DNA of 63,926 nt, counting the filler, from Intoshia linei (taxonomy: Eukaryota > Animalia > Orthonectida): assembly GCA_001642005.1 (NCBI GenBank). It is 8 parts of 8 records of this genome, joined end to end, with 100 filler letters (N's around TTAATTAATTAA, not from the genome) between each part and the next. Parts side by side here need not be neighbours in the genome. Positions count along the whole stretch, not along the records: positions 35,229 to 45,175 come from LWCA01001323.1; 7 more parts are not named here. One strand, 5' to 3'. The stretch's first letter is position 1. Every line of letters starts with the position of its first letter. The notes beneath the pieces were generated by a model. That model worked only from the letters and a program-made list of their open reading frames with translations, was not told the origin of the DNA and searched no databases. This document shows, in pieces, positions 25,001 through 60,936 of the stretch. The translations under genes and the position numbers were made by a program.

Positions 25001-26939
25001 ATTGCTCCTTAAATCGAATTAAAGTATTTATTGTTAGTAAACTCATTTTTTAATACAAATATAATTTTTAGATAATGTTTAATTAAAAAAATCATTAGTT
25101 CAGTTGTAAAAATAAATTTTACTTATTATTAGTAGTATTGTATTAAATTTTACAATTTACATTTTATTGCAATTTAACCTTTAATTTAAAGGTTTTATCT
25201 GCTGTTTATGCAGTTTTAAATTCTCAATCTAGCCAATTTTTTCCAAATCCCAAGAATATCGAGTTATAGAGAGAATACGGTAGTTGTAAATGCAAAATTT
25301 GTAATTTGCGTAGTAGTAAAAAAATTATTACATTATGTTTGGAAATTTAATTTAATTTGTAAAAAAATTAACTCCCTTATTCAAAAAATATCAGAATATT
25401 GATTCAACGTGTCTGAAATACTGCTAAAAGTATGTCTAATTTAATAAAAATTAAATTGAAAGCATATTTTGGCTGTACATTTGTATAATACAATTCATAA
25501 TTATAAGACATGTAAGAAACATCCAAATTCGATCTGTTTGAGGGCTTGCTCAATTGAGAATTTAATTGAAATATTTTGTATTTTCAAATTACATTTTATT
25601 TTATCGTTTTTTTAAATAAATCGGGGTCCTAATTTGGTGACCAGTGCAGTGGCATGATATATAACGTTGATTATATATTAATAATTATTTAATTGGTTAT
25701 ATTAATTAAATGTGTCATTGTAGATGTTGAAAAAAATTCATATGTATATTATGAAAAAAAAACAAAATTTATCACCAATCCCAGCACCAGCTAAAATGCT
25801 AGCAGCACTAGTTCCTAATCCGCCACATCCCACTATACATACACTGGATTTTTTTAACTTTTGTTGAGCTAAATGCAATAAATATAAATATAATAAAATA
25901 ACAATATTAGTTACATTGTGGACCAAAATCCTTTAAAATAATTTGACGTCCGTATCGATGTGTCTCGTAATTAGATAACATGGCAAATGGGTGAATTTTA
26001 TTTGATAAATGATTCATTTCATCTATAGAGTTTAGCTTCTAATATATATAATAATATACAATTGTTCTCAAGTGTTGAAAAGTCTCGTGCAGTGGCAGTG
26101 ATTTGACAAGATATTTTTATTCTTATATTATTGTATATTTTTTGGAAAGAAAGGAATGATAATTTTTGTCTTATTTAAATCGTTGAATTCACGGTTAAAA
26201 GTTATTTAACTAATTTTTTGTTTAGATTATATCTGGAGTCCAAATATACAATGTATATTATACATAGGTTTTAAATTATTGAAATTAATTTTTGATATAC
26301 ACATGTAATATGTAAATAATACTCCCTCTGTTCCGATTAATACTGTTTTTGGTGAACTTTAAGTTTTATTAATTTTAATACCACCTAATAGCCCCGACAT
26401 GAACGTATTGGATCTCGGGTTCTTCAACGCCACCCAATCCGTTCAACATCAGTATTGTCCGAAGACTATTGACGAATTGATTAGCTGCGCGAGTAATGCT
26501 TTTAATGAGCTACACCCAGATAAGTTGGACAATGTTTTTTTTACGCTTCAGAAATGTATGGAGTAGATGATGCTTGTGAAAAAAGGAAATGAGTAAAAGC
26601 TACCGCATATCGGCAAAGCAAGGCTTCGCAACAATGGTACTCTACCAGTATCCCTACCTTGCAAACCAGAAGCGATCCTTACGGCTCAGAAAAATATTAA
26701 TGAGCATACCCTGTAAAATTAAAGACTTCTTATCTTAAATAAAATGTAGTTTTGTTTAATAAATGTTAAAATTAGTTTCAATAGTATTTATAAATGTTTT
26801 TCAATGATGATATAAAAGTTTAGAAATGTAAACATTATTTCGGAACAGAGGGAGTATATATTATCATTTTTACCTCTTCTAGTTGATTAAGTCTCCTTTT
26901 GAGTTGTTCAATCTCATTCAAAATACTCTTACGATTCAT
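22042..26939 (-). CDS. MOCS3: Adenylyltransferase/sulfurtransferase MOCS3 (UBA4)
   Basis: Coiled-coil start; RYGRQIIL; IVGCGGLG; D[10 protein letters not shown]; [16 protein letters not shown]; PCFRCIHP; GVLGV; rhodanese end [10 protein letters not shown]...[19 protein letters not shown]; about 13 GT-AG exons. Confidence 0.93.
22942..23830 (-). mobile_element. Helitron-like copy in a MOCS3 intron with internal tandem duplications
   Basis: 3' end on minus strand: hairpin GCTGTTTGTAC-GTA-GTACATCAGTC then CTAG|T; about 54-bp and 35-bp tandem duplications at about 23275-23480. Confidence 0.7.
26322..26854 (+). mobile_element. Internally deleted DD39D (plant-mariner/Stowaway-type) transposon in MOCS3 intron 1
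   Basis: TA|CTCCCTCTGTTCCGA ... TCGGAACAGAGGGAG|TA perfect 15-bp TIRs; remnant [22 protein letters not shown]...KTIDELI...[13 protein letters not shown]...[10 protein letters not shown]. Confidence 0.9.
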
Positions 26940-27118
26940 ATTTATAGTAATAATTAAAAACTATATGTATAACAAAATATATAAATGAAAAATGCAATTA
27001 ATGATAATATATATTTTAATTTAAATATAACTTCATTATCTGTGCATTATTACGAGTTCGCAATACATTATACATTAGGGTGGTTCAAAAAAATAATTTT
27101 AAAAGTACTTTTGAGTAT

Positions 27119-30100
27119 TGTAATGTTTAGATGATATAAATATCTTAGATATAGGTTTATTCACAATAAAATATCTTTTAGACGATAATAGGATATAGTG
27201 TTGATATAGTAACATTAAGTTTAACATAACATCATTACACCTTCGCCCCAAGATATTACAAGGTGTAATCTTGTAATCTTAAAGGTTTCTTGAGTACGTT
27301 TTGGTCGCTGTTTGAAAAGAGGGAGGTGTTTTTCATTTATTGGGAGATTCGGAATATAATTTGAATTGTGGTGAGTGAGATTTTTGATCCTAAGGTTATG
27401 GTTTGCTTTATGCTTTGTAATGTTTGTCTATCAAAATTTGAATTAATATGCATTTCATATCCTAAAACAATAGAAGCAGGAGTTTGACCAGTTTTAGATG
27501 AAATAGTAGATCTCATAGTCATTAAAACATTGAAGTAGATTGTCCCAGTCATTATCTGAATCAAGACATCTAAAACACTCACGAATTGTACGAATTCGTC
27601 TTTCAACTACGCCATTTTGCCAATGTTGATATGGATGATAGTGGTGTTTTTTTATCCCAAACATTTCGCATGATTCAATTACTATTTTACTTTCCAACTG
27701 TTTTCCACAATCAAAGTGCATTTCAGATGGTGGGCCGTAGCGGCTAATAATATTTTTTAAAATGGCTTTTACAACAGAATATATACCGTAATTTCACTAA
27801 CAGCCTCGCATTCAACCCACCCTGAGTAATGATCATACATTACAATTACGTATTTATTTAATTGACTTGTTTCTTTCAATGGTCCCATTATATCATTATT
27901 GTTATCATTATGTTGCCATAATTGATTGAAATAAATAGATGTGACAATTTTGAAAGGATTAAATTTGCTATGATTCCTATTTTTTGATATATTGCATTGA
28001 TGGCATTTAGCAACATATTCTTTTACATCTCGGTACATGTATCTCCAAAAGTAATTTTTTTTTATATTGGCGTAAGTAGCATTAATACCAGGATGGACAA
28101 AAGCTTTCGAATCATGATAATATTTTATAACTATTTTTATAGCAGAATCAGAAACTAAAATCAACTTTTCATTATTTTTAACATAATATAGTGTTTCATT
28201 AACATTGGAAGTGAGGAATACATTTGTCTAATTTTCCCCCGTTGAATGTCATTTAGGCCGACAAACTTTATCGCTCAAGTAGAGTTATAATAACGAGATA
28301 AAACATCCGCGGTAAAGTTGAATTTTCCAGGTTTATAACATATTTCGTAATCTAATTTATCCAAATACAATACCCATCGAACTAACTCACTGAGAATATT
28401 TTTGGATGTTCTCATATAAACTAATGGATTGTGATCAGTATATATCTTAGTATGAAGACCACTGATATATCTCTTAAATTTATGACATGCTTTAACAATA
28501 GCCAAAAATTCTTTTTTTGTAGTACTGTCGTTTTTCTCAGTGTCAGTTAATTTATTGCTATAATACTCGATAACTCTACCATTTTGTAGCAAGACAGCTC
28601 CAATTCCAACATTAGCGGCATCTGTTTCGATAATAAAAGCTAAATTTTTCTCTGGAATAGTGAGTAAAAGTGCAGATTTTAATGATTTCTTTAGTGCAGT
28701 AAACGATTTTTCCTGTTCTTCATTCCAATGGAATTTAACATTGTTTTTCAATAACTTGGTCATCGGTTCTAAAATTTCTGTGAAGTGATTTATGAACCTC
28801 CAATCAAACACAAAAGAACACATACCTAAAAAACTGCGTAACTTTTTTTGGTTGTAGGTTTGATAATTAAATTAATAGTATCAGTTTTTGAGGGATCAAT
28901 TTTGATTCCGTTAGAGTTAACCATATGACCTAATATTTTTATTTCAGTTTTACCTATCATACATTTACTTGGTTTGACAGTTAAATTTGCTTTTCGTAAT
29001 GCGAACAATACATTGTTTAAATCTATCTTATGTTCTTTAACAGAATTTAAAGCTATAATGATGTCATCTAAGTAAACAATTACATTATTTATGCCTTTTA
29101 AAACTTTGTCCATAACACGTTGACATGTCACCGGTGCATTAGACAATCCTTAAGGCATAACGTTATATTGGTAAAATTTGTCTTCAAATGATGTAGAAAA
29201 TGCAGTTTTCCAACGATCTGATTTTTTTAAAGGAATTTGCCAAAATCAAGAATATCTGTTTATTTCCAAGAAAATCAATGCATTCCTTTAAATCAGGTGC
29301 AGGATATCTATCCTTAATAATTGTCCTGTTCAATTCTCTAAAATCTATAACCATTCTATAAGAACCATTTTTTGTTTTTACTAAAAAATATCATGAATTA
29401 AAACTACTAACACTGGGTTCGATTACATTCATTTTTAACGCATTATCTATAATTTCACAATGATTATCACGTTGGTTGATTGATATTGGAAATGGCTTTG
29501 CACTTTATAATATAGTACTAGGGTCTAATGATATGGAATTTTCATGTTTTAGCAAGACCCATATTATCACAAATAACATCTGGGTACATAGAAATAACAG
29601 AATTAACATAATTATTAGAATCAAAATTTTTATTTTTAATAGATCGATTAATGTTTATCAGTTTCAATCCAATGGCATCTGGGCATCCTATGATATTTTG
29701 AGTATTTGTAACATAACATTTCATTGAATCTAAGCCGTTTATAAGATATACTACCGTCTCATAAAATTTTAATTTTGTTCCATCTGCAGAAAGAAGGATG
29801 TTATTACTAGGTATTATAGGTACATTTTTAAATTTTTTTAACGAATTCTTATTTATAAAATTTACATGAGATTCAGAATCAATGATAAATAATAAAATTA
29901 CATTGAACTCATCATTTATAAATTCAAGAGGTTGTTCAATTTCACCAGATGTTTGTTTGTAAACTGCCCTTATCTGTTTGTTAGGCATCAATTTTCGATT
30001 CTCTAATCTGCAATATTTGGCTAAATGTCCTGTTTTATTGCAATTATGACATTGTAAATTTGTGTTATCATTGTAATTATTGAATATAAAATTAATTTTG

Positions 30101-30704
30101 GATGCAATTATTTAATATTTCTTTAGATCAAGTGAATCATTTGTACTTAATTCAGTTTCAATAGCCGCATTATTAATTCCAAATAGCAATTGGTCTTGAA
30201 TGCGTTCATCAATATCAATAAACTTACATTTGTTCGCATGTATATATAATCTGGACATAAATGTAGACGCTGATTCATAATTATGCCTAATGCATTGTTG
30301 AAATTTCTTTCTATTTGAGGAAATATTTTTTGACTTCCATGAAGTAGATTCTTTTTTATAACTACTAAAGGTTTTTACTTCTGAATTCTTTAGGCGATTC
30401 CGCGCCACTTTGCCAATACTTAATTTGAGAAGAGCTATTTTTTCACTTCTTCAATTTGGTCTTGGGTCAGCAAGTAAAGGTAAACTGTTCAATCCTATCG
30501 CATGAGTCAATATTGAAATTTCCCGAATCATTAATGCATGTGGGTAAATTCATTGAAAACTTTTCCATGGTTTAAAAATATTTTGTAATGTTTAGACAAT
30601 ATAAATATCTTAGATATAGGTTTATTCACAATAAAATATCTTTAAGACGATAATAGGATATATTGTTGCTATAGTAACATTAAGTTTAACATAACATCAT
30701 TACA
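27119..30704 (-). mobile_element. Full-length decayed Ty3/gypsy LTR retrotransposon (Mag-like)
   Basis: 121-bp LTRs 27119-27239 and 30584-30704 (TG...CA, 5 mismatches), 5-bp TSD AGTAT, polypurine tract GGGGCGAAGG next to the 3' LTR; frameshifted gag (IQDQLLFGIN, CCHC-like knuckle), protease (IIDSES), RT (YLDD), RNase H (TDAANVGIGAVLLQ) and integrase (HPG...CHQC, NGVVER). Confidence 0.95.
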
Positions 30705-32305: not shown

Positions 32306-33769
32306 TTAAAACAAAAACCCAATTACACATATTTTTGCAACATTGCATAATAATAAAATACCAAGTAAATAATCGCCAGCTTTCATTCCACAACAATCAG
32401 CTATGGAATTAACATCAACTTTACCAATAGTCTCAGTCCATTGTTGTTCACTAAATACCAACTCAAATCCATAGGATGCATCCTGTCGAAAAAGCCGTAT
32501 ATTTTTAATGTAGGCAGTATTATCCGTCATTTGACTATCGACAGATTCAGTGACATTATTTGGATGGAGTACATTTTTAGACTCATCCGTAGATTGTGCA
32601 GATACAACATTATCATTAGATTCCTTGTCTTTATCATCAACATCATTTGTTTCGTGAATTTTAATGGTTGTTACAGATTTTCTAGCATACGGAATGGCTC
32701 CTTGACCAACGACATAAACTTTGACATCATCTTGAACTAGATTTACACTAGATGCTTGATTTGATGAGTTTTCATTAATTTTAACATTGTTTAAGCCATT
32801 AGTATCCTCAACAGGTACTTTAGTTTTATTACCCTTAACAATGGAAATAAGTTTATTAAATTTATTCTTATCAATCGATAAATTTTCTGGGAAACGTGAT
32901 TTGGAAGGATATTCACTGCAATATCCGTACAACCTCTCTATAGTGAAATTAAAAAAATGAAGGTACTGTAAAGTAGATAAATCACAAACAGAAAAATCTA
33001 CAGAATTTTCAACTGTATTCATTTCGTTAATTAAGACAGTATGTTTCATTTTGTCTGTATATTTATCTCGAACCTTTAAAAGAGAATAAAAATGTTTTAA
33101 GCCACTAATTTGAGCAGGTGAATTTTCTTCAATATGTGTAACAATCATTTTTTTAGTGTGAACTCGAAATCCGTATCCTTCATAAGAATCAATTTTGTCC
33201 AAAGTCAACTTTTCAATGTTGTAGGTAAAATCGCAATTTCCATATATCCCATATGGAAAATAATCTTGATTTACTGATTCCAAGTTTTGAACAAGTTGAT
33301 TAGAATACTTGTTTGCTAAAATAACAATCACAAATAAAAATATTATAATATATGTTACCTAAAATGTTTTCAATATTGGTACTATATTTCTTTAGAAACA
33401 GCAAAAATTCTGGTACAATACCAGTATCCAGCGCTAAAATAATTAGACTTTTAGTCTTTTTTATTTTTTCCACTACGTCTTGATATTTATCAAAAACTAC
33501 GTTGACACCATTGACGTGCAATACAAACTGTCCAGTAAATAAATGGGATCTAGCAGCCGGTGAGTCAGGGATAATTGATTCAACAATTTGAGTAAATCGA
33601 AGTGATGTAAATTTTAAATTAAAACCATAATTTTCATTACTATCACTTCTCTCCAAGTAATGTAGAGAACTTTTGGTAATGAAATATCTAAATTGTTATA
33701 CATTTCACATAAAAAACATCACCACCTGTATTTACTAAGAATGGATTCATCTTGTTTTTGTTTTTTCAT
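32306..33769 (-). CDS. Multi-PDZ scaffold protein (NHERF/PDZK1-like); 3' end uncertain
   Basis: Three PDZ carboxylate loops (NYGFNL, GYGFRV, SYGFEL) with SPAARSHL / SPAQISGL / SIADCCGMKAGD; short introns near 33690-33725 and 33316-33359. Confidence 0.78.
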
Positions 33770-35228: not shown

Positions 35229-35849
35229 CTCGATTAATTAAAAAAATTAATTACTCTAGAAAAAAAATAAAAAAACGGGCTTTAGTCGTCAATACTGAGA
35301 GGATCCATGATGCAAGAAGGTCATATTGTGACAAATTGGTACAATATGGAGCCAGAAAAATCCTATTTTTGGAAGAAGGTGGTTTTAATTTACATACCTC
35401 CATAAACTATGGATATTTACTTGTGAATACTGATCCAATTCTGTACCAACCTGCCTCGAAGGGTAAAAACATATCGATATCCAATAGCGGACTAGAGCAC
35501 TACCAGTTATGCGAGGGATCCTTTAATAGAGAAAAATTTCTTAAATTTTTGAATAATTGTAAAACCAATAATGTATTTGATAACAGACCAATCGTTGTTG
35601 AAGAGAGAAAACGTTGAACAAATATTTTTACCTCCATATAGCCCTGATTTGAATCCCATTGAGAACTTGTTCAGTGTGATAAAAGCACGACTGAACAATG
35701 TTCGTCTTAGGGCTCATAACAGAATACTACTGGTAGAGAACATACTACGTGTTCTCGAAGAAATTAAATGTGAAAGAAATATTTTTGTCAACATCTTTTT
35801 ATCTATTTGGCAGAAGGTTAATTTGGTGTTTCGAAGACAGGAGAATTAA
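35229..35849 (+). mobile_element. IS630/Tc1-type DDE transposase fragment
   Basis: ILFLEEGGFNL (degenerate DE-x-GFN), frameshift, then FLPPYSPDLNPIENLFSVIK. Confidence 0.85.
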
Positions 35850-37514
35850 AATTTATTACATTGTAGAAATAAATGTGTGTAATACAATCTTTTTATGTTT
35901 TGGAACTATCGTCATTCACTTTAATTTCTTAATATTTTCATTAAAATTTATATTTATGAAAAATAAATTTATATTCATGACAAACTCTGTATTTAAATTA
36001 AATATTATAAATATATGCTTTATTGCGTGAAAACATCAAATTAAATTAAAATTATACATCAAAATGAATAATCTTCATCTATAAAATCAACATGATATAA
36101 ACGACGAAATATATCTAGAAGATATAGGAAATATGGATTTATAGCATCTTGAGCATGACGATGATTTGATAGATCAAGTTAAAGAGTTAAAAGGTCTCAC
36201 CCCAAAATTCCGACGTAGAAAAAATGTTCAGAACCATCTTCAAAAATTCTCCTGAAAAGAAAATAAATACCAATATTATAATGGTACAGAATAATAATCA
36301 ACGTGAATTAGAGTAGAACAAATATGACTATGCCAAATTATTATTAAGGCGTATATTGATAAATGTGAAGATCAGATTAAAGAAGTTGAACATCTTCTCA
36401 CAACTGGATAATTATGATATTACCTATGAATTACTAACAGCACAGCCTAGATTTCCTTGGGTAACTCTTGATCCTAAGGTCTCTAACCAAGTACGCCTCA
36501 ATAGTGTCTTGGGAGGATAATATCTCCTTTACCAACATATGGTTCAGAAAATAAACCATTATCTTCGACATTCTAAAGCAACAGATAAGAATATAGCAGA
36601 TGACAAATTGATGACCTGGCTGATTACCAACGATTATCTCAAAATTATGGATGCATTGGATTCAGTACTATTATGAAGTAGAAGACTAGTATGAAGAAAC
36701 ATACACAAGCATATGCAATTATTATGTCCCTCAACTGGTATTTAGGAAATTCAACTAGTGTGTTGTTCGACCACCACGATTATCATCGCAACACAACCAA
36801 GCGGCATTAGCTCAATTAGACAAAGCACGTTGTGCTGACGTTGCAAAATATTACGTCACGGTAAAGAATGTACGCACATATACATTAAATGGTCCAACTG
36901 CCACACCATTACAGTATCGCCACCATATTCAACGGAAGTAGTTGACAAAGAATACCAAGCCTTACAATTTCTTAATGGAACGAAATATTTAAAATCAATA
37001 TGAAATCTAGTTTTATCTGATCTTTGTTTTGACCAGAAATAATTTTTTTTTATATTATTCGTTTCTAGTAAGAACTTGACCTAAAGATTTTGATTAAGTC
37101 TCTGAAATTTATCAAACAATGTATGTTAGGGTCAATGGGAAGATGAAGATTCACTGTATTCATTGGGTAACAACTATATCTTCATTATATCCCACAGCCT
37201 TTATAACATAACTATCATTAGTTACAGTTATAAAAATTATATCTACGACAAAATTTTTTATTTATAGGGGGAGTATATCGGAGTTAGTCGTAACTACACT
37301 CCTTCCTGTTATAAATCAAATTTCATCAAAAGATATTTTTCGATATTATTACATTCAATTTGTTCTACTTCATTTCATAATATATAGTTCTAGTTACCCT
37401 AATTACTTTGTTTCTTATTAAACTTATGAAAGTTACTTATGTTATGTTAAGTTACTTATGTTATGTTAAGTTACTTATTACTTATGAAATCTTATTTTTC
37501 TAATTATTTGTTAA

Positions 37515-38160
37515 TGTGGGGGAAGACCGACAGTATCAAAAAAGATACTAGCTCAAGGAGATAACCAAATTATATGCTTAACTTACAAAAGTCCAAGTAG
37601 ATTAGATAATGATTCATATGAACAAAAGACTAAATCAATAAAATTGAATGTCAAGACCATTATGCAATCGATAAAGAATGGAGCTTGTAAGTTAGATTTG
37701 CTAATAAAAGCAGATGAAACATAATGTTCCACTAACTTTCTAATATATGGAAAATATCATTTGTTCAGGGGTAGAATATTATGTCCTGAGTCAAAAACGA
37801 GTTTCAAGAGTCGGCTGTTTTTAAAATGACATGAAAATTAATATTTCAAATACAATTTATTCAATTGGTGCCGCCGCCTTACTATTGCTCAACATTCTTT
37901 ATTTTACCAAAGATCAATAGATCTTTTTTTATTATACGTAAATTCTTCACTTAGGCAAATATTGTTTTATAATCCTTCATTGATGGGGCCTAGCCTTATA
38001 TATTTAAAACATTGGAGTACATATCCAAGCACAGCCAAGAATAACAAATTTTAAATGAAGATTCTATTTGTAAATCCAGGAATAGGAGGGATGGCCTTAA
38101 CTAGATTCTTAATTCGGCAATTTCCGGATGGAATAACTGAATCACTCATTTTACGGTTCA
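37515..38160 (+). pseudogene. Endogenous viral element: rhabdovirus-like (Mononegavirales) L polymerase fragment
   Basis: KILAQGDNQIICLTY (GDNQ at 37557-37568), IMQSIKNGACKLDLLIKADET*CSTNFLIYGKYHLFRGRILCPESK, then after frameshifts VSRVGC, ISNTIYSIGAAALTIAQH and ILFVNPGIGGMALTRFLIRQFPDGITESL, in the same order as rhabdovirus L block III. Confidence 0.9.
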
Positions 38161-39214
38161 GAATGAAAGTTTCAAATTACGGAATTGGTGCCGTTCTCAG
38201 ACAAGGTTTACACACCATTCAATTTATCAGCAAATCTCTGAACGAAACTCGAATTAAATACTGCACCACTAACAACGAGTGGTTTGTGCAATCTTAAAAC
38301 TCAGAACATACTTACAAGGAAAAAAATTTACGGTAATCACAGACCACAAACCGTTAACAACAATTATGTCCTCGAATTCACTAACACATCAACAATTTAG
38401 ATACACTCAACTTCTCCAAGATTTTGACTTTGAAATAACATACAGACCTGGCAAACTTAATGTCACTGCCGACTATTTATCACGTAAACCTATCATCAAT
38501 GCAATTTCATTAACAAATAATAATCCATTTAAAATTAAGAAAAATCAATTTATGAATAAAACATTCTCTGAGTTAATTCGAAATATAAACTTTCAGGAAA
38601 ATTTAAACATTATGAACCCATTTCAATCTTTAAAAAACCAACTATGTATTTTAAAAGACAACCTTATCGGTAAAAAAATCAATAATAAAAACATAATACT
38701 TGTACACAAACTGTCAATATCCGAAATCATAAAATATTTTCATAATAATATCCAAAGCAACCATCCAGGCATTCAGAAAACCACCGAAAATATCAGGCAA
38801 CAGTACTATTGGTCTGGCATGTACAAAGATATAGCAACATGGATAATGAAATGTGAACGATGTAATTGTGGAAAATCTGGAAGAAAACTACATAACTTTC
38901 CGTTGAAGCAAATTAAAACGGAGAAATTCAATCAACTGTGGTAACGAGACTTCCTAGGCCCATTACAACAAAAGGATATGGGCAACAGATACATTTTGGT
39001 CATGATCGATCATTATAGTAACTGGGTGGAAGCAGTTCGAATGGCAAACATTACAGCTCAAAATTCAGTCGAAGCTGTTGTAAATAATATAATCTGTAGA
39101 TTTGGAATACCGAATCAAATACACACAGACAAAGCAACACAGTTCGAATTTCAATTATTTCAAGAAATTTGTCTCAAATGCGGAATATTAAAAACAAATA
39201 ACAATTATAATTAA
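38161..39214 (+). mobile_element. Ty3/gypsy pol fragment (RNase H + integrase), truncated at both ends
   Basis: SNYGIGAVLRQ, TDHKPL, YRPGKLNVTADYLSR, HPGIQKT...CERC, DFLGPL, IDHYSNWVEA, RFGIPNQIHTDKATQFE. Confidence 0.92.
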
Positions 39215-39261
39215 AAATAAAAAGGTTTATAATTTTTTAAAAGAGTATAAATTAAGTTATA

Positions 39262-39594
39262 ATGAAAACCGAAAATAAAGAAAAAAACAAGGAACATAAA
39301 GGAATCAGTTCATTATTGGCAGGAATAGGGGTATCTCGAGACTTTCAAAAAGGAGCAGATGCACGATTAAAAATATGGTATGATCAAGGAATTACCCCAG
39401 GGTTCAAGGAGGAAAATGGAAAAAGAGTTTACGACGAAGCGGGAAGCATTAAGTTAATAATTCCTCCTTTAGACTCATTAGCGTTGCCATATCATGAAAA
39501 GCTTTATCAAAGTAAAATCGAAATGGACTTAAAATACACTAAAAACTCCTCAGAGACAATCCCTCAATATCTCAAAATCTCAGAGACAAAATAG
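39262..39594 (+). CDS. Intronless orphan ORF (110 aa), origin unknown
   Basis: Open frame with ATG, more GC-rich than flanks, directly after the broken integrase. Confidence 0.35.
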   Translation: MKTENKEKNKEHKGISSLLAGIGVSRDFQKGADARLKIWYDQGITPGFKEENGKRVYDEAGSIKLIIPPLDSLALPYHEKLYQSKIEMDLKYTKNSSETIPQYLKISETK

Positions 39595-39639
39595 ATCCCT
39601 TAATTGTGGCTAGCTATATCTATTTACTCTCAAAAACGA

Positions 39640-39801
39640 AATTTGGCGACCTCGTTTGCTTCATAAAATGAATGATGACGATTATGATAGACGCATAGAA
39701 TTTTGTGAATAGTACAGCAACAACTCTATGAGAACATTAAAATTAGGAATAAAATAATTTGGACCAACGAAGTAAAGTTTAAGTTGAATGGCCACGTTAA
39801 C
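39640..39801 (+). mobile_element. mariner (rosa/DD41D-like) transposase fragment
   Basis: MNDDDYDRRIEFCE*...IIWTNEVKFKLNGHVN resembles the WSDEAxFxLNGxVN motif. Confidence 0.7.
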
Positions 39802-39909
39802 TTTGAAAACTTTGAAGATAAAATGGAATTCTTTTCATGCTTTTGTTTTGGATCATTAATGTACAATATTAAATAAAAGCTGTATTATTTTAAATTTTGT
39901 GTTCGTTAT

Positions 39910-40020
39910 TGTAATGATGTTGTTAAACTTACTGTTACTATAACAACAATATCCTATTATCGTCTTAAAGATATTTTATTGTGAATAAACCTATATCTAA
40001 GATATTTATATCATCTAAAC
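39910..40020 (+). mobile_element. Solo LTR of the 27119-30704 gypsy family, 3' tip replaced by a hAT end
   Basis: Near-identical to the reverse complement of the 121-bp LTR, ends at ...ATCTAAAC then CAGGGGTCGC. Confidence 0.9.
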
Positions 40021-40445
40021 CAGGGGTCGCAAGAAAACTTATTAACACTGTTATTTTTTTAAACTTGAAGTAAAAAATTTAAATGTATCTACAAATAAAT
40101 TTACATTTACATTAAAATTTTTATAAATTATCACTCATTTGAATATCTCGTTTATCATTTATAAAATTTAAATAATTACTTTATTACTAAAACGGATCTA
40201 TAAAAACGTTAATATATCAATGAAAACATTGGCTAACAAAACAAAAAACCGAAAAAGAAGATACAGTAAATCATTTTTACAATATGGATTTACAACATCA
40301 ATTTAAAATAATGAAGATCAACCTCTTTGTGTAGTATGCAATGAAATTTTAGTAAACGAAAGTATGAAGCCCTCAAAACTAAAAAGACATTTGAATTCAA
40401 AGCATGCTATGTACGCTGATAAACCTATTGAATTTTTTGAAATAA
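40021..40445 (+). mobile_element. hAT (Buster/ZBED5-like) transposon 5' end with BED finger
   Basis: CAGGGGTCGC terminus; KRRYSKSFLQYGFT...PLCVVCNEILVNESMKPSKLKRHLNSKH...KPIEFF. Confidence 0.88.
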
Positions 40446-40872
40446 AATTTTTTTATAAAATGAACAATTCAGTGAATACAACTGTAATATTAATAAACTA
40501 CAGTTCGATTTAGATCTAGTTTATAGCTACGAGAAAGTATATTCAAAATATAATTTTCTGTATACTTAATTAATATACAATTTCATATTAAGCGTTATCT
40601 TACTACAACAACTTTGTTAATATCAGTTTTATATTTATTAAAATCCTTTGCAATATTGGTAAAATTCGCCTGAAATATGTTTATAAAGTGAAGATTCGGT
40701 TCATTATTGATACATAATTGGTATTTTTAAGTATTTATTAAATTGGTACTGAATACATATCATCACATTGAAAATGATAAAATAGGTTTTTGTAATTTTA
40801 TTTTTTCTGGAATTTTTGCTATTTATGACAATTTTTCTCTAAGTACCCATGTCATTTATTTCTTTTTAATTC

Positions 40873-41050
40873 AAGGGATAGCCAACCTCACTATTTAATT
40901 AAAAATGGGCTAAACGTGAGGATATTCCTGGAGAGTTAAATTGCATTTTACAACCGTTAGTACCGAAAGAAATGATACTGTCACCACCTCTGCATCTAAA
41001 ATTGGGGTTCGCCAAACAGTTTCTAACCATGCTGTATAAGCAGAGTGATA
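40873..41050 (+). mobile_element. Chapaev/CMC-type transposase fragment
   Basis: WAKREDIPGELNCILQPLVPKEMILSPPLHLKLGFAKQFL matches the PPLHIKLGLxKQF signature. Confidence 0.75.
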
Positions 41051-41310
41051 ATAACATAAAATATAGAAATGTTAACCCGTTAGTGCTCGCGCTTTTTTAT
41101 AACGTAAACGCTCGCAGACTAATGCTCCATTTTTAATCGACTAATTCCATAAAAATTTTTCTATACTATTTTCACAAGGATATTTAAAATGATGAGCGCA
41201 ACTCGAATCGACATCTTTGTAACACCCCATTCTAGATTATTTTATATATCATGATAATACACCATTTCCGCACTAACGGCCCTTAATTATTTGATGGGTG
41301 TGACACCCTA

Positions 41311-42076
41311 ATGTACATAACTACTTCAAGTATAGCAGATCTGATATGATATTGTATTTTCACTTTTCAGCTTCTGCGATGATGGCTGCTCGGTTCACCA
41401 TTCACGCAAGTTTGGATAATTCTGACACAGGTGTCACATACAAAATATCCAGAACAATCAATATTCAGGGTAACATGCTTGAAATATTTGACTTGCCGTA
41501 CATGCAGGAAACCCCATATTCTCAGACTGAACCAATTTAGTCAGTTAGGACTGATCTTTTTTCCAATATAATGTCTCCTGAGGCAACAGAAACTAGACCT
41601 ATAGTTTTAGCAGTGTGGATAGCATTCCACGGGTTGGAAGTTGCTGTTCGTGCGGTGTTTGATGGAATCCTATTACCAAACAATATATGAACCCGTTGTA
41701 TTTAGACAAATGGATAGAATAGACTCTTCATCTGTCATGATGGGAAAAAACTGAACCAGGCGCGAATTTAAACGGAATATCATGTTCTTCTCAATCCATT
41801 TACCATATCATGAAAAGGGTGTCAGGTGTTTATGTAATACTTTTAGACACAACATACTAGATTGGAAAGACACGTCCCTGTTAAGTCCAGTGTGGCACGT
41901 TGTTTGCCATGTTGAAGTATAATCATGGAGGTTTCAAAGTTTTGGTAAATCCTGATTTTGCTTATTTTGGAGCTATAACTACTGCTGACGATACTCCTAT
42001 AACTGCTATAACAGTTCCAAAAACTTATTTAACTGGGATAGGTAGCGTTCTCATTACAAATCCTTCACCGTTGTAG
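41311..42076 (+). pseudogene. Endogenous viral element: picorna-like capsid (jelly-roll) fragment
   Basis: NYFKYSRSDMILYFHFSASAMMAARFTI ... SRTINIQGNMLEIFDLPYMQETPY ... IVLAVWIA, and a second domain start LFAMLKYNHGGFKVLV; these fit the FxYWRGS..F.F.....ARL and F.VPY....PW motifs of Picornavirales capsids; stops and frameshifts present. Confidence 0.72.
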
Positions 42077-42625
42077 TGAGAAATGAAAATCAAAACGAGA
42101 GTGAATTGATGGGAGCAATAAATACAGGGTTTATATTGTTATGTATAAAGTTTTTAAATCTAATAGATTTAGTTCAATCACATCGGAGGACTGTAGTGCA
42201 TTTTACAGGTAAATGCTTAGTTACGTAGATCGAAGCTTGAACAGCGAGTGATTGCATAATAATAAAATATTTTGACATGTCAATAGAGATTGAATAAGAT
42301 TAAATTTTAAAACGGTGTGTTTAAAATTGAAAGCGGTATTAATAAATAATTTACATATTTACTCAAAGGGCCACTGGTTGCCAGCCCTGCTATAGTGTGT
42401 GACTAATATGAACATTAAAAAATGTTATCACAGAATTGTCAATGTAAAAGTTTAAAATTTTTAAAATAAAATATAAAGTATATATTTAAATCTCGATTAG
42501 TAAGATAGTGATATATTACAGTGCTGGCAATGTATCGAAATATTTTTATCGATTTCCAGCACTAATCACAAACCAATTATTAACTAATCGGTTGAAAATT
42601 ACGCAAAAAATTAAAAATTATTAAC

Positions 42626-44586
42626 CTTTTATTGGTAATTTCTTTAATGCAGACAACAACGTCCTTAATAGATTTAATTGAAACGGTAATTTTTCTGCAA
42701 CCAGGTGATTTTAAAATTTTTTGGATTAATGACATTGTTTCCGCCAATATATTCTGCGGACACATATCTATTTTTGTAACAACAATAATTAAAGGTAAAT
42801 CGAGGGCTAATATTAAACTTAAATGTTCTTTAGTCATTCCTATTATACCAGCGTTAGCACCAATCTACATAAACAACTATAAAAAATAAAAGTACAAAAA
42901 ATAATTAATAATAAATAATTATAACTATTCAGATAAAATTTAAAAGTATACCACCAAGACACTATGGTGCGGTTTATTTGACGTCATACCAAAAACTGTC
43001 GTTTTAAAATACTTTTCATGTCCGGCCAAATCAATAAAAGTTATTATCTAAAATAATAATTAAATAAAAAGTCAATAGTTTCACAGATGCAACCAGAAAA
43101 TGAAAAATAGACCAAAAAAATTACTAACCGATGCAGTGTCATATAGCCCTACCCAGATCTATAATGCTCTTGAATTGATGTAATATATTTTAAATTTAAC
43201 ACACAAAATAGTTGATATTGAAGATATAATTTTTTAATGCTTAATTTCAAAAAATAAGGTCTCAATTTTAGAAAAATTTCTTCAAACCCCTCGATACCCT
43301 CATTTTTATACAGAATATTTGTATTAAGGAAAATTATCATGTTAATATATTGTTTAATTTTCTTTTTATAATTTTAAGGACTCGATTAAATAAAACGATG
43401 CAATAAAATAATATACCTTTGACGAATTAATTCGAACATTTTTCCAATCCACCTTTCCTTTAATTGGTTTTACATAGTCACAATCCTCGTTGAACCCCAA
43501 AATGTAATTAGAAACACTACTAGTTCTCCCACTTGTTTTTTCGTGTAAATGCTGATGCAAACGTCCTCGGGTTAAACCCCTTCCGTCGTCTAATTGGTCC
43601 AACGTCAACACACCTAGAAATGATGTTTTTCCAGCGTCCACGTTTCCAAGAATGGCTATTCTAATATTAAAAAATAATACAAACAATAAATATCGCACTA
43701 ATGATAAAACTTTTTTGAAAATAATTTTTTAATAATTACAATTGTTTATCATCTTTTGAACGATTACTCCTATGTAACATCCGATTCGATTTTGTAACAT
43801 ATTGATTAATACATTGTTTTTAAACATTTTTGGTAAATTTACCGACTTTTACAAAATTTTTCACAAAATTTTTGTCAAAAAGTGAAAATATTCAGATCAT
43901 TCAATTTTTTATTTATGTATATATATATATTTTTTATCGTAATTATGTAATTGCTTTCTTATTAGTTTCATAAATTAGATTTATAATTTTATAAAGATTC
44001 GTTTTCAGTGTTCCATACCCTTCAAAGCTTTGCAGTGAACAGTATATATTTTAATATTGTAAAGCAAAACACAAAAAACAAATTTTAACCATTCTAATCA
44101 ACGGTTACATATATACAAAAGCAAAAAATAACTTACCTAACCTCGATATATATGCTATTGATCATATTTTTTCGTATTAAAAAATGTTGAATTTCATTTC
44201 CATCTTCCAATTTTTCAGCAAGTATTAATGTGGATTTACACTTTAAAATTGTACAAATTTTTTCCAAAGTTTCTAATGATAATTCCATTTGTGATGCTGT
44301 TATACCACGTTCTTTTGATTTTCCTAAAAATTTAAAATTAACAAAATAAAAGAATGTAATCAAGAATATAAAATTAAAAAACCTTCCAATCCAATAGTCA
44401 AAATACATTCTCCACTTCTAATGTATATTTTTTCTTCAATATCATTACACAACAAATCCATTACAGGCTGAGAAGGTTCTACATATACTTCCTAATAAAA
44501 TACATTTAAATAAAATGTAGATTTACCTTTCTGTCAATATTGTAGTCAATTTTTTCTTCATTTTTTATCAATTCTTTTTCGTTCAT
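42626..44586 (-). CDS. GTPBP1: GTP-binding protein 1 (translational GTPase), 5' exons only
   Basis: [77 protein letters not shown]; ends at a GT donor; domain II/III exons not seen. Confidence 0.92.
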
Positions 44587-45275
44587 TTCCTCGATTATGA
44601 TGAATATCAGCTGTCAGTATAAACTGTATATTTTATGAGTCAATGCAAATATTTTTTCAAAATGTAATATGTTCGCATGGTTTTATAATTTATTTAGACT
44701 GATAATTTTTTTAAATTTGAAATTATAAATTATTCACTTTGTTAATATATGTTTCTGGGTTTATTTTTACGTCAATTGGAATATATCGTTTAATCTCAAT
44801 ATACTTTCTATATATATATTTCTTAGTTTGATTAATTGTTCCATTTCTCATTTTAAGTTTATTTAGATTAGGTTGGTTAATTCTCGTGTCAACTAGGTTA
44901 TTCATTTTTAGGTAAAAAATTTTAATGAAAAACAGATACAGTAGTTTCTCGTTTATAAGTACACTAGGGCAGTGGTTTTCAACCTTTTTGTGTTCGCGAC
45001 CCCTTATAAACATCATATCAGTTCACATTTCAAATTTTCGAAAAAATGTGACTCCCTAATGTACATCCATCTTACTATAAGACTTATAATTAGAGTCGAC
45101 ATTTTATAGCACTAAAAATTAGATGATAATGCTAATTTTATTGACTTTATACAATTGTGAGCCTGTAATTTTGCANNNNNNNNNNNNNNNNNNNNNNNNN
45201 NNNNNNNNNNNNNNNNNNNTTAATTAATTAANNNNNNNNNNNNNNNNNNNNNNNNNNNNNNNNNNNNNNNNNNNN

Positions 45276-46379: not shown

Positions 46380-46925
46380 AATCAATTATGTACAATTTTT
46401 AAATCTATTTACAAATAAATGCATTGATAATGCCAAAAATGCCAATTTGTTATGCCATAAAATCGATTTTGATGAATGTAATTTCAAAAAAAAGGTAAAT
46501 TTATTTTCAGATAACCTATTTCAATGAAATACATTAATGTAAACTTTTTAATATCAAAATTTAATATTAAATAACGTTAAAATTGATACAATGCTTAAAA
46601 ATATATATTATTACTGATCAGCCATTGTCTCATATTGTACTTTTGTTAAAGGACTAAAATTATCGTCCCTTTTCTTAACTATTGCATTTATTTTATACAC
46701 TCTAATTAGATGTGTCAGAATCAAAAACTGTTGATTCGAACCTGTAAAAAATTGGACAATAAAGGAGAAATGGTGTTGCCAATAAAGGAATTCAAATCAA
46801 TACTAGAGTTGATAAATATAATTATATCAGATGAACAATTGTACAAAATAACGAGCAAATATGATAAAAATCTATCTGGAAAATTACCCTACTTGAAACT
46901 TATAAAGGAATATACCAAAGTATAA
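46380..46925 (+). CDS. EF-hand protein, last two exons (EFCAB6-like)
   Basis: Exon 46380-46494 INYVQFLNLF; exon 46710-46925 CKKLDNKGEMVLPIKEFKSIL...KYDKNLSGKLPYLKLIKEY*. Confidence 0.65.
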
Positions 46926-47609: not shown

Positions 47610-48533
47610 TGTTTAAGGGTCAAAAACCCCTGTTGTCCCTCTTTTTGAAAATTAAACAAGTTGGAGAATTTAAAAAAATATATACGCTGATGCGGATTTT
47701 AAAATCCTAAACAAAAAAATTTACAGGTGGTAGAGTTGTATCATGTTACCACACATAAAAAATTTCAATCCGAATAAGTGACGACTTCACGGTCAAAAAA
47801 GCATTTTAGTATTCATATATTTTTTTTCCGAAATATTTTATTAAAACAAAAAATATGAAATAATTAACGGTCCGAAAATTTAAAAAAAGGATTATTCTGA
47901 TAGAGCTTATTCCAGTTGATATAAATACAAAATTTCAACCCCAGAAATCTACGTATTCTCGGTAAAAAATAATTTTTAATATATTATCAACCAATATTTT
48001 TCAAATATTTCGATTAAAATAAAAAATTGAAAATGACAAAATAGGTTTTTATAATTTTATTTTACTGGACTTTATGCTATTTATGACAATTTTTAGGATT
48101 GGACTGTTTTTACTTTATTTTTAATATTATACACACATTTTGTCTAATAAAATTGGACTGTTTTTACTTTATTTTTAATATTATACACACATTCTGTCTA
48201 ATAAAATTAAAAAGTTTTAACTTTATTTTTAATATTATACACACATTCTGTCTAATAAATTAAAAAAATGGGATAATTGTTTTTAAAATTCTTTACGCTA
48301 GTGTTAACTAAAAAAATTAAAATGGAATAATTCACTTTAAAGTAAAAAGTAATGTGATATGACGGTTCCACCTGAAACAAAATTTGGGACTACTCTTTTA
48401 AAAAATTGATAATAGTTAATAATAGGATTTTTAAATTAGATTTTCAACGTGAATTTATTTTTTTGGTATAATAAAAGAGTGCCCTCTGCAGAGCTAGGTG
48501 CTGTTTGTACATAGTACAGAACAGCCAAGCTAG
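47610..48533 (+). mobile_element. Non-autonomous Helitron-like element, 3' part
   Basis: Ends with hairpin GCTGTTTGTAC-ATA-GTACAGAACAGC then CTAG|T; similar 3' ends at about 10814, 13275, 20116, 59369 and 22942 (minus); about 53-bp tandem triplication at 48095-48262. Confidence 0.8.
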
Positions 48534-48758: not shown

Positions 48759-50046
48759 TCATATAACTGCGTACCTTTCTACTCTTAGATTTACGCTAAG
48801 TTTCCGAGAGCGATAATTTTCATATAGTGTATTGTCTGTAATGTCTTTTAGATCATGAATATACTTTGTGAGTAAAGTTTTCAACATCGTAAAATCACAA
48901 TATTGCGGATTTTCAATATTAACGAAACCCCACGAATATTCTCTGCCCAATATTTTTCGATCTGATAATAATTTTGATGAATTTGCGCCTATAACAGCAA
49001 ATGGCATGCATTTGTTTATATTTGATAACTCATTCAAATAATCATTATCTTCTTCATCGTAATCTATCATTTTATACACGTTTATGTTATTTTCTTTTAT
49101 TTGCTCCAAGATCTAGAATGCTGAGTTTAATTCAATTTTATTGTAATATATTTTAAATTACTTTTGTTTTTAGATTATGCACTTCTCCTTTAGTCAATAT
49201 GTCTGATTTTGCAATCACTAAAATTATATTTACTATATCGTCGATTTTTTTTAAATCTTCAATATCGGTTTCTTTTAGTCTAAATAAAAGTTTTTTTATA
49301 CCATGCAAAATTTATTCAAAGTGGGTCTACGGTTTCTAATTTCATACTTCATATTCAAAATTCAAATAAGAATGATATAATTAAATACGTTAAGAAATCA
49401 ATTTCTGCGAATGAGACCTAATTTTTAAATTCTCGGTAAAAATTAGATCATCGATGTTATACTTACAAAAATAAAGAATTTTTTTTTTAATTTACAAAAT
49501 ATTGGTTTATAAAAATTTATAAAATGTTGAAATACATTTTTGACCGGTAGGATGCAAATTTCAAGATTGAAACTTGACTTTATTTGATATAAAAAAACTA
49601 TTGCAATAATACATTTTTAAAATACAAACTTTTTACTTACAACTTACAATTCAAACTTAGATGAATAATAATTTATTAAATATTGCCTAATAAAATAAAA
49701 TTTGTTATTTTGACCTTGAAGCTGACTCAGACTTAGATTGAAATTGATGGTAATCCATCTGGCGTTAAAAAATGTATAAAAATTTTTGCATGATTATTTT
49801 TTTTTATAATTATTTACTAATTTATTTATTTTTTATCAACTAACCGATTATAATCGGATTAAAACACATATAACCGACAGACATATTTAATTTTATGTAA
49901 GTAAGGATTACTTGTTTCCAATAGGATTTAAAAAAAAGATACAGGCATGAATTCGGTTATCCACAATTTTTTGTCTATTAATTCCAGATTCCCAATTGTA
50001 ATGTTCATCAAATTTCTCCGAAATAAAATTTATGATTGGTTGGATT
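48759..50046 (-). CDS. Septin, last three exons
   Basis: ESGINRQKIVDNRIHACIFFLNP; VNIILVIAKSDILT (G4); PFAVIGAN; GREYSWGFVNIENPQYCDF; LYENYRSRKL. Confidence 0.92.
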
Positions 50047-50890
50047 CTAGAATTAACATGAATCAGTTTATTACAACGAAACAATTAAATAAATTATTTA
50101 AATTATGAAGAACCTCTACATAACGTATATAAAATTATGTACGTTATAATTTTTATGGGCGTCTACTTAAATCTAACCATTTTTACTAAAAATCAATATT
50201 TAATAATTCCTTAATGAAAAATCCTAGTTTTACCAACCCTAAAAAGAAAATCCAGTTTTACTAACACTAATGAAAAATGTCCATTTTACCAACTATGACA
50301 GTTGTTCTCAACCCGTAATCCGCAAAACCCAGAGGTTCCGTGAAATATAAATGCGATATTTTTTAATTTAAAGTTTTTCTAAATTACTATTGTATGCAAT
50401 GAAACAACATCATTTCTCAAATTTAAATCAAATAAGTTTTAATAAAAGTATTATACGATGTGAGTATGGATTATGGATGTTTCTTCGTTGTGTGAGGGAG
50501 GCAACTGGTTTTACCGGCTAAATTCCAAGTGTTATTAATTTTTTAATTAAAAATCAAATTTTTATATATATGCGAAAAAAAATTTTGATCATGCTTTTAG
50601 GTGAAGCGATTTTTTGAAATTTCATAAGGGTTCCGCGCAGTACAAAAGTTTGAGATACACTGAACTATGACATGCGATTCTAAAACACGCTTTATTTTCC
50701 ATTTAGGCAATAAATTAGATTGCTTTATGCAAACATAGCATTCCATTTATTATTCTATTAATCAATAGTTTACCAAATTATAATTTTTAAGACCAGTTAT
50801 TTGCATTAGATAACATGTTATTACTTTGACCCTTATTTAATTGAATAAGTGTATATTTTAACGTATTATATAGCTAAATGTGAATTTATA

Positions 50891-51540: not shown

Positions 51541-52938
51541 NNNNNNNNNNNNNNNNNNNNNNNNNNNNNNNNNNNNNNNNNNNNTTAATTAATTAANNNN
51601 NNNNNNNNNNNNNNNNNNNNNNNNNNNNNNNNNNNNNNNNATGAGTAGTCTGATGTTTTTGCAATAATATAAAAAACTAAAATCATAGTGGTTAGTTTAA
51701 ACTCATTTCTCATGCCGTACGACCCTAGATTTTTTTAATTTCTATCATGCAATCAAAATGTTAACACTTTAGTATATATACTATATATTACATATTATAT
51801 ATGTATATATGTTATTTATTAATATTAACAAACATAGCCAACATATAAATGGCTGATAAATATAATACTTTATATCATATATCTTGGGACTGCAGATTTT
51901 AAATTTAAATACTCAAATTTTTGTACATCTTCAGCTTCATGCGGTTATTTTTGTCAATAGTGACATGGTATAATCAGTAATTTTATGTTTATAATACTTA
52001 ATAATTTTTATTAATTCTCAATATACATAATTAATAATTCATATTCAATAATTTATAATTACTAATAATAATATAGTAATTCATAATTAATAAATTACTT
52101 ATTATTAAATTAATAATGATTTCACAACTTGTGAATCACGTTTCATATTATTCAATTAATCTAAATTCAACATACTAACATAGTTACAAACCTAAGTTGT
52201 ATTCATTCTGATATTTAAATTATATAATAATATATACATGATAATAATAATAAGTTGTTAGTAATAAATTGTTTTTAAATTGTATCCATTAACTCTATTA
52301 TCTTACTAACATTTATCCAAATTGCAACACACTTTTAATTAGCTCATTATTATTATGTCTTGAAAATGAGATTTAACTAATATATAATATTTTACACGTA
52401 TCATGTTTAATTATTATATTATGGATAGTATATGTGATGTACAATGGATAGATTGAAAATTTTATAAACATTATAGCATAAATAACCGAAATTTGAACGT
52501 CGATAAAAACCATAAAAATCGAGCTAGAATCAAATTTAAAAAATTAAAATGTATAGTTAAGAGTGGGTGTTAACACCATAAAATATAAACCATGACAACT
52601 TACCACAATGTTGTTTTTGCAAAAAAATAAAGTTAAATTTAAATTTTTTTTTTATTATTTTTAAACGGATATTTAAAATGATGAGCGCAACTCGGATAAG
52701 TATCATTAGATATTTTTAATTGCGACATAATGCTTCTATTTTAAAAATACACATATTGATTACTAACCGCCCATTAAATTCTAAAAATTTAAAAAAAATA
52801 TGACACCTATGTATGATGCATGATGCACCTCAGTATGAAGTAGTAACGTGTTTAATTCATTCTCACAAGGTATACTATAATCTCATAATTATTATAATGT
52901 AACAGGTAACACATAATATAAACTTGATATTATACAGT

Positions 52939-54340: not shown

Positions 54341-54744
54341 AAGAATTGAAATATTTCAATCACACCATTTTGTTTGCAATAAAAAGTTTCATGTTTACCA
54401 TAGGGCTACTTTTATTAGTTTAAATAAGGACACAGGTTAATGTACATATATATAGTCTATGTATGTTAGTATATTTCTATTAATATGATAATATATATAC
54501 TATTATTTATTGCGCATTTGGTAATAGTTACAATGTAAATTAACCAATGAACTTAGTACCATATCAATATATCGTAATTGAAAACATAGTAAATACAGCG
54601 TTATATATCATACTTAACATTCCATTAACTTCCTCCAATAAAACTTATTATAAGTACGTTCTCGGTAAATTTAATAAAAACTTCAATTTGTAAACCATCA
54701 TAAATTAATTCACAGTGTGAAATTGAAAGTAAAAAAATGTTTAC

Positions 54745-55322
54745 TTCAATATGAGACGGGAGCATTTGAGATAAATGATTCAGGTGTTTTTCAAAATCTG
54801 TATAATTTTGATCCTCCGTTTTAATAACTTGTGTATGCTACATTTAAATTTAAATTTAAAATAAAAGTAAATGATAAATTTAAACAAATATAAAAAATTG
54901 ATAATAAACCAATCTTTGGTATTTTTTAAGATTAGTATTAGTAGCAGAATCAAAATCTCCAGTAATTAAATCTGGAATAGGCAAATTTAATAATTTGACA
55001 TTGAGTTGATTAAATTGATTTATGGCTCCATCAACACATGAGCGAAATGTAGCTATTTTAAAAGTTAATAAATAAACTATAATTTCCTATTCAAATTCCA
55101 AAAAAATATTAATATGTTACCTCTTCTCCATAAATTAATAAAAATGGGTAAAAATTGTTGTTTCAATGGTGTATTCAATAGTACAACCGCAAAAGGTATA
55201 TCTGTACAAATAAAATTAATTGAAATGCATTTTTTATTATATTTACCATAATCACTAGTCAACACAGCCAATGGATGTATCGTACACTTTGATTTTATTG
55301 GAATGTTTTTGTCAAAAGACAT
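54745..55322 (-). CDS. TPK1: Thiamine pyrophosphokinase, 5' exons
   Basis: AVVLLNTPL...LWRR | ATFRSCVDGAIN...PDLITGDFDS | VIKTEDQNYTDFEK. Confidence 0.88.
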
Positions 55323-60584: not shown

Positions 60585-60836
60585 CAATTTGCATCAATAG
60601 AATTTAAACAATTTTTACAATCTATGGATATTCAATATTGTTTTACTGCTAATTATCATCCACAAAGTAACGGGCAAGTGGAAAATTTTAATAAAACTTT
60701 AAAGCAAAGATTGAAAATTGCTGTTCAAGATGGTATGAGCATTAGTGAAGCAGTTACAACAATTCTAGGCAATTATCGAATGTCACCACATACTATTACT
60801 GGGTACCCATCTATAGAACTACTACATGGAACAGCT
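60585..60836 (+). mobile_element. Gypsy integrase fragment
   Basis: QFASIEFKQFL...YHPQSNGQVENFNKTLK...YRMSPHTITG. Confidence 0.88.
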
Positions 60837-60936
60837 NNNNNNNNNNNNNNNNNNNNNNNNNNNNNNNNNNNNNNNNNNNNTTAATTAATTAANNNNNNNN
60901 NNNNNNNNNNNNNNNNNNNNNNNNNNNNNNNNNNNN

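Follow-up and report, generated by a model that had tools for sequence, protein, structure and literature searches.

A strand-polarised patchwork of transposon and RNA-virus relics behind a GTPBP1 splice donor in Intoshia linei, a candidate intron-hosted small-RNA trap

Could an intron of the GTPBP1 gene serve an orthonectid parasite as a memory of the transposons and RNA viruses it has met? The question is raised by a stretch of Intoshia linei DNA (35229-42625, 7397 nt) that adjoins the 5' exons of GTPBP1 in the window analysed here, meaning the whole 63,926-nt sequence of eight joined parts along which all positions are counted. A first-pass annotation had described it as a dense archive of invader fragments, all on the + strand and antisense to GTPBP1, hosted in an intron and resembling clusters that produce PIWI-interacting RNAs (piRNAs). 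We find that the stretch is real, was mostly read correctly, and is unusual in so compact a genome. Foreign or repeated DNA accounts for 82% of it, two unrelated RNA viruses have left relics within 4 kb of each other, and every piece with a readable direction does lie on +. Its anatomy makes it a candidate intron-hosted, single-strand trap of the piRNA type, in which read-through RNA would be processed to Piwi-type small RNAs that target the invaders, a reading to which we give not quite an even chance.

Contigs from several runs bear on the locus: DNA contigs of run X1, which may be related to the assembly source and about which statements hold among the pieces listed, and contigs of runs X2, X3 and X4, whose kind was not stated beforehand and which include spliced ones. 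The 5' exons of GTPBP1, encoding the N-terminus and G domain, occupy 42626-44586 on the − strand with 100% identity to A3Q56_06914 of I. linei (likewise 100% for the exon at 43417-43662). X2, X3 and X4 contigs join these exons over GT-AG introns, and their matching ends at 42626, where the last exon on record (42626-42864) meets the GT donor at 42625; the spliced contigs thus uphold both the strand and the donor originally assigned, and the relics almost certainly follow a splice donor that is in use. Beyond the donor the three mRNA contigs continue for 644, 672 and 713 nt. The part of 35229-42532 that all three could cover is no more than 518 nt, and 332 nt of this fall in a high-copy repeat bin of the depth table. 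Domains II and III of GTPBP1 were found nowhere in the window, either by tblastn with 10 of 120 homologues or by profile; the best match, at 40741-40797 (E 0.99), was rejected as chance, lying in a high-copy repeat of which another copy reads differently. Since the mRNA continuations do not fit wholly within the stretch and domains II and III have no match in it, the stretch is most likely intron, forming behind the donor one GTPBP1 intron of at least 7.4 kb. For the proposal of an intronic location the used donor therefore stands, and the acceptor and 3' exons were not found in the window. The other GTPBP1 introns on record measure roughly 35-476 bp, and a median intron of 57 bp is reported for I. 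linei (PMC6543705).

Two public gene models are affected. The deposited last exon of A3Q56_06914 (41671-41540) has zero depth in X2-X4 and was rejected. This exon (41540-41671) and the model A3Q56_06911 (36539-37724) are built on relic DNA, without RNA support here, and both are probably wrong. Within GTPBP1 itself, X3 and X4 contigs keep most of the 476-bp intron at 43661-44136, with a short alternative splice at 43660-43740, at about a tenth of the mRNA depth.

The patchwork of unrelated invaders is well supported as DNA. X1 contigs cover 35925-37377, 37347-39884 and 41290-42138 with 8, 15 and 2 differing letters (0.2-0.6%), and these fixed differences indicate that the same order of pieces exists in another haplotype and that the central joints are real. 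One X1 contig links the L piece described below to its gypsy and mariner-like neighbours, and the contig at 41290-42138 covers the capsid region. No listed X1 piece bridges 42138-42612, where short repeats occur, and the link to the exon consequently rests on the deposited record. That record, positions 35229-45175, is a single whole deposit of 9,947 bp with an N-spacer on either side; neighbours past the spacers, including a gypsy element at 27118-30704, lie outside it and need not be neighbours of the stretch in the genome.

Profile searches confirmed both virus relics that had been proposed. A fragment of rhabdovirus-like L, the RNA polymerase (37515-38150, +), retains a GDN motif and runs in a single frame with 4 stops in 212 codons. 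In a Pfam scan of 35229-43830 in six frames, with stops replaced by X, it matches the Mononegavirales L family (Mononeg_RNA_pol) at E 3.6e-23. It aligns in one frame with rabies L (E 6.5e-28) and vesicular stomatitis virus L (2e-20), whereas two longer, paramyxovirus-sized L chains reach only E 0.003-0.006; comparison with three 11-kb viral contigs gives 35-38% over ~170 residues. Mononegavirales L homology, rhabdoviruses as closest relatives and a place within host DNA mark it as a Rhabdoviridae-like, non-retroviral endogenous viral element (EVE). Genes of viral RNA-dependent RNA polymerase (RdRP) families in the I. linei proteome have already been remarked upon (PMC6396948), and the L piece is carried by A3Q56_06911, on the same record.

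The other virus relic is a picorna-like capsid (41310-42076, +), supported by tools as an Rhv-type jelly roll over 41310-41627 and by eye over the remainder. A capsid profile made from viral contigs, with a seed stretch that Pfam assigns to Rhv and CRPV_capsid, matches 41310-41627 at E 1e-5 among 852 window tiles (next, unrelated tile: E 1.1). The score is 22.2 bits, whereas none of 1000 shuffles exceeds 7.4, and the match persists at E 6.6e-5 when the seed virus is left out of the profile; because the seed was picked from a weak first match (E 0.006), a slight circularity is left. PDB, Pfam and a word-based search of viral contigs returned nothing for the piece, a protein search yielded 0 of 135 candidates, and its single-sequence fold is so poor (pLDDT, the predicted local distance difference test, 52) that a fold search with 0 matches at E 0.001 was judged meaningless. 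Jelly-roll capsid homology within host DNA, backed by profile, shuffles and omission of the seed, identifies a picorna-like non-retroviral EVE.

Transposon relics surround the viral ones. The Tc1/IS630 and gypsy pol pieces were correctly named: the former comprises the 3' half and right inverted repeat of a Tc1/IS630-type transposon (35229-35943, +; DDE_3, E 1.6e-10), the latter an RNase H and integrase fragment (38151-39200, +; RT_RNaseH 5e-10, Integrase_H2C2 2.6e-17, rve 3.5e-12) that differs in family from the gypsy at 27-31 kb (38-47% at the amino acid level). A 957-nt X1 contig extends beyond 35229 and joins 35943 on the opposite strand over 49 nt, and the depth of ~43-52 in X1 contigs makes the Tc1 family multi-copy. 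Because an X1 DNA contig carries the rest of this family with a matching end, the piece is probably a whole element truncated by the end of the record. At 39910-40020 lies a long terminal repeat (LTR), lacking its last few bases, that is 93-94% identical by blastn, and inverted, to both LTRs of the minus-strand gypsy at 27118-30704, which places its sense on +. Its kinship with that element, as first suggested, is clear, and is one of sequence, the gypsy itself lying outside the 9,947-bp record. The LTR is followed by the 5' end of a hAT element (40021-40480, +), with a terminal repeat and a weak Pfam match to a BED-type zinc finger (E 0.001, below cut-off). This hAT end, multi-copy by depth, starts at 40021 immediately after an 8-mer with central TA near the LTR end, and insertion after such an 8-mer is as expected of a cut-and-paste hAT. 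None of six viral stretches matched it. Its assignment to hAT holds; the narrower name Buster is presumed from motifs. Several pieces retain ends, contrary to the first description of them as mostly end-less: the right inverted repeat survives in Tc1 and the left end in hAT, and an intact miniature inverted-repeat transposable element between TTAA sites (MITE; 41072-41286, partial copy at 52641-52697) had been overlooked. It has inverted ends and is presumably piggyBac-like.

How strong is the polarity? All seven tool-backed independent insertions lie on +, for which p is 0.008 at 50:50, with L and gypsy counted as one event; including two pieces read by eye it is 9 of 9 (p 0.002), both values being post hoc. 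Pieces with DNA ends (Tc1, hAT and LTR) insert either way round, and co-packaging alone cannot therefore account for the shared strand. Mobile or viral Pfam families occur on + alone, namely DDE_3, Mononeg_RNA_pol, RT_RNaseH, Integrase_H2C2, rve and the weak zinc finger, and on − the scan gave GTP_EFTU and two chance-level matches only; an Rfam search had 0 matches. Fragment density is likewise high, as in unistrand piRNA clusters: in addition to the 82% of foreign or repeated DNA, the stretch, with 11.7% of the window's length, contains 4 of the 7 mobile coding relics that Pfam recognises there (p 0.005, post hoc). The others came from a background scan of 150 of the 221 open reading frames (ORFs) of at least 48 amino acids outside the stretch; they comprise a gypsy (−), an integrase piece (+) and one of DDE_3 type (−), and so occupy both strands.

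The stretch appears to have grown by a combination of nested DNA insertions, at least one retroelement-mediated capture of a virus, and deletions. Cut-and-paste transposons and an LTR may have inserted in succession (hAT sits within the LTR), and viral RNA may have been copied by a retroelement: L and the gypsy RNase H abut directly and share both strand and frame, which suggests template switching during reverse transcription. If the stretch is a trap, antisense insertions would have been kept and then trimmed by deletions. The GTPBP1 promoter would drive a minus-strand RNA, 37% U over the stretch, that feeds piRNA biogenesis. The precursor would probably be a minor unspliced or late-terminated isoform, since the Drosophila data on exported transcripts favour an unspliced or alternatively terminated isoform over an excised intron; unspliced RNA meets a stop 14 codons past the exon. 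A bolder proposal strikes us as rather unlikely: that a giant intron of GTPBP1, a housekeeping gene, acts as the immune memory of an animal among the most reduced known, its transcription being redirected to make a piRNA precursor of a single strand in which DNA transposons, LTR elements, a rhabdovirus and a picorna-like virus are recorded. Virus-trapping piRNA clusters would then occur in annelid-related parasites and could be carried by introns.

Is there machinery for it? The supplement of PMC7943196 counts three PAZ-PIWI proteins, one Dicer and no cellular RdRP in I. linei, numbers equal to those of Capitella. The suggested check for Piwi or Argonaute genes is answered as to presence: that count comes without clade, the alignment file of PMC7943196 has no I. 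linei label, and the supplement of PMC11114477 does not name Intoshia. A literature search on Intoshia with piwi or with rhabdovirus returned no account of the locus, the original genome paper being outside that search.

Several points weigh against a small-RNA trap, of which the clade of those proteins is one, for parasites can lose Piwi, as parasitic flatworms show. The likeness to a trap, and with it the putative small-RNA role, is one of layout. The stretch was picked post hoc and received closer searching than other parts of the window, and with ~42% repeats in the I. linei genome (8% DNA transposons, 1.3% LTR; PMC7943196 supplement) repeat-filled stretches are to be expected. Near exons, 72-77% of mammalian L1 and LTR elements are antisense, in an analysis that omits DNA transposons (PMC3088655). 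Measured against this bias, which is mammalian and not I. linei's own, p is 0.10-0.16 for the seven insertions and 0.05-0.095 for the nine; the polarity cannot be told apart from the strong antisense bias that ordinary intronic elements show near exons. Of the archive first described, the dense, single-polarity anatomy stands, with an orientation that is compatible with this ordinary bias (p 0.05-0.16). In Drosophila, moreover, piRNA production is tied to exported cytoplasmic transcripts with exonic antisense pieces, not introns (PMC13226689), and on those data an intron would be an awkward piRNA precursor. Transcription of the stretch is equivocal: low-depth X2 contigs without differences match 37940-38127 in L (188 nt, depth 4) and 41892-42125 at the capsid end (234 nt, depth 3.1), spliced GTPBP1 mRNA has depth 186 in X2, and X2 contigs of the stretch are patchy at ~1-2% of mRNA depth; fewer occur in X3, and X4 has none that match unique parts. 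These strandless contigs could equally be ordinary pre-mRNA or DNA carry-over.

Might the stretch then be a neutral graveyard, a long intron that tolerates insertions and from which sense copies were purged because their poly(A) or splice signals break the GTPBP1 transcript, with no small-RNA role? We regard this as a serious, if still doubtful, possibility. The mammalian bias makes 7 of 7 unremarkable; stops, deletions and indels polymorphic between X1 and the window are what such a graveyard would hold, and so much repeated DNA in the genome fits as well. It leaves unexplained, however, two unrelated RNA-virus relics in 7 kb and the excess of coding relics, and the cited bias covers long interspersed nuclear elements and LTRs, whereas the four DNA-transposon pieces here are likewise antisense. 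Nor is AATAAA depleted on the pre-mRNA (minus) strand (12 against 11.6 expected); ATTAAA occurs 6 times against 13 expected, but controls dip alike.

The zero-spacer abutment of L and gypsy, together with an orphan ORF that follows the integrase within ~60 nt, also invites another account of the common strand, in which the decayed ORF at 36064-37003, L, gypsy pol and the orphan ORF are one or two template-switched cDNAs of co-packaged RNAs, sharing a strand without selection, and the remaining polarity is chance. This is improbable: the DNA ends or target sites of Tc1, hAT, the LTR and the TTAA element speak for separate insertions, and at least five separate events remain, with all readable ones on +. 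Very improbable, in our view, is an artefact of assembly or context, whereby patchwork and GTPBP1 exon would not truly belong together or several copies of a block would have been collapsed into one. The unbridged interval, the 3' exons not located and the higher X1 depth of the patchwork (14.5-26.5 against 5.3-12.8 in GTPBP1 bins) would fit it, but that depth climbs with GC (bins 0.22-0.37), X1 contigs span the central joints at small differences, and one deposited record contains both stretch and exons.

The remaining pieces are more modest. The decayed ORF (36064-37003, +), whose presence had been noted correctly, is a copy of an I. linei protein family: it is 71% identical to A3Q56_01045 (E 6.6e-9; a second block has 20 of 25 residues identical), relative to which it has an internal deletion, and the family has no match in Pfam, PDB or Atlas. 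Two of the four matches in the search with this ORF were unrelated repeats. A3Q56_01045, a 260-amino-acid protein on a 60.5-kb contig, is possibly from another virus or mobile element, and its contig could hold a second archive. An AT-rich spacer follows (37004-37514), with 19-nt tandem repeats at 37414-37514, and is 47 nt shorter in X1; X2 and X4 contigs match 37221-37438 and then continue into the same unrelated sequence, which was not seen in X3. The orphan ORF (39256-39594, +; 112 codons) had no relatives in Pfam, in Atlas (best 0.78) or among 206 candidates, which were longer proteins only, and its single weak PDB match was judged chance. Next to it is a mariner-like relic (39620-39900, +), read from motifs by eye and presumably of the rosa type. 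It has no Pfam match and belongs to a repeated family, an X2 contig aligning over 250 nt with 18 differences; its six viral matches were 16-17 residues long, three ORFs inspected were unrelated proteins, and these were set aside. A transposase-like fragment (40903-41070, +) has as its sole relative a metagenomic locus, L124 (49%, E 5e-9); on its motifs it is presumed to be Chapaev. The supposed Helitron piece found no support: no Pfam match appeared in six frames, its ends were not searched with a dedicated tool, and at 40646-40836 there are instead high-copy non-coding repeats (summed X1 depth >7000; copies at 23281-23435 and 48026-48094). Rolling circles make up 0.005% of the I. linei genome (PMC7943196 supplement). 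Contig depth, window copies and sequence define a last multi-copy non-coding element with a hAT-like end at 42230-42392.

Elsewhere in the window, the gypsy at 27118-30704 (−) is a compact 3.6 kb with 122-bp LTRs that are 96% alike; frameshifts and stops interrupt its coding part, which comprises a gag zinc knuckle, reverse transcriptase, RNase H and integrase. Other relics are mariner-like (26363-26735, +, by eye) or Tc1 DDE_3 (63527-63925, −), and integrase and protease-like pieces lie at a spacer (60585-61077). Pfam identifies host genes for a WAC-PHD-bromodomain remodeller (1411-4892), Sec1 (11065-12287), LRR (20200-21284), ThiF-rhodanese (22045-25932), PDZ (32309-33695), EF-hand (46710-46922), septin (48762-50084) and thiamin pyrophosphokinase (54628-55086); ORFs 57968-59062 and 59519-60028 have no Pfam family. 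The seven N-spacers (8824, 17554, 31364, 35129, 45176, 51541 and 60837) are identical, 100 bp long and contain a linker of 12 bases with stops in all frames. A deposited record ends at two of them or more, and the order of parts across spacers is therefore not to be trusted.

Whatever its function, the locus is a fossil record of a rhabdovirus and a picorna-like virus meeting the orthonectid germ line. Should the reading as an intron-hosted, piRNA-type trap be true, the range of single-strand piRNA clusters rich in viruses, at present mostly an arthropod one, would widen to a spiralian (annelid-related) parasite whose genome measures 42 Mb. Introns would then count as traps beside intergenic read-through and 3' untranslated regions (UTRs), testing the need for an exported exonic precursor. 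The layout itself is already known from flamenco and mosquito clusters, and Intoshia presents a variant in a new lineage. Flamenco is hundreds of kb long and dominated by LTR elements. With it and with the genic 3' UTR traps of Drosophila the stretch shares antisense transposon fragments on a single strand, which one Pol II transcript reads in the fly and would read here. For the Drosophila traps it is enough that an exported host transcript contains antisense pieces, and host-gene transcription can drive a trap (PMC13226689); those genic traps are exonic 3' UTRs, whereas the Intoshia stretch, apparently intronic, combines DNA-transposon and LTR pieces with two RNA viruses.

Comparable too are the core piRNA clusters of Aedes and other mosquitoes, rich in antisense non-retroviral virus relics and fed by gene read-through, where a protein-coding gene next door supplies the start of the transcript to which virus relics and transposons are antisense (10.1101/2022.08.22.504762). 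They are mostly intergenic read-through past the end of that gene, and small RNAs prove them, in contrast to the Intoshia stretch, which lies behind an internal donor, spans 7.4 kb as seen and is known from DNA layout. Across 48 arthropods, non-retroviral relics are reported as enriched in piRNA clusters in 28 species, and 81% of those inside clusters yield primary piRNAs against 36% outside (10.1101/396382). Ordinary intronic transposon remnants resemble the stretch in being short, antisense-biased intron fragments, but as described in PMC3088655 they comprise no viral relics, show lower polarity and imply no such packing. Among lophotrochozoans, the dog whelk has a rhabdo-like probable EVE with negative-strand, 5'-U RNAs of ~28 nt (Waldron et al., PMC6085071), a rhabdovirus relic like the one here; it is a lone nucleoprotein contig without genomic context, whereas in Intoshia an L fragment sits in a mapped, multi-element stretch.

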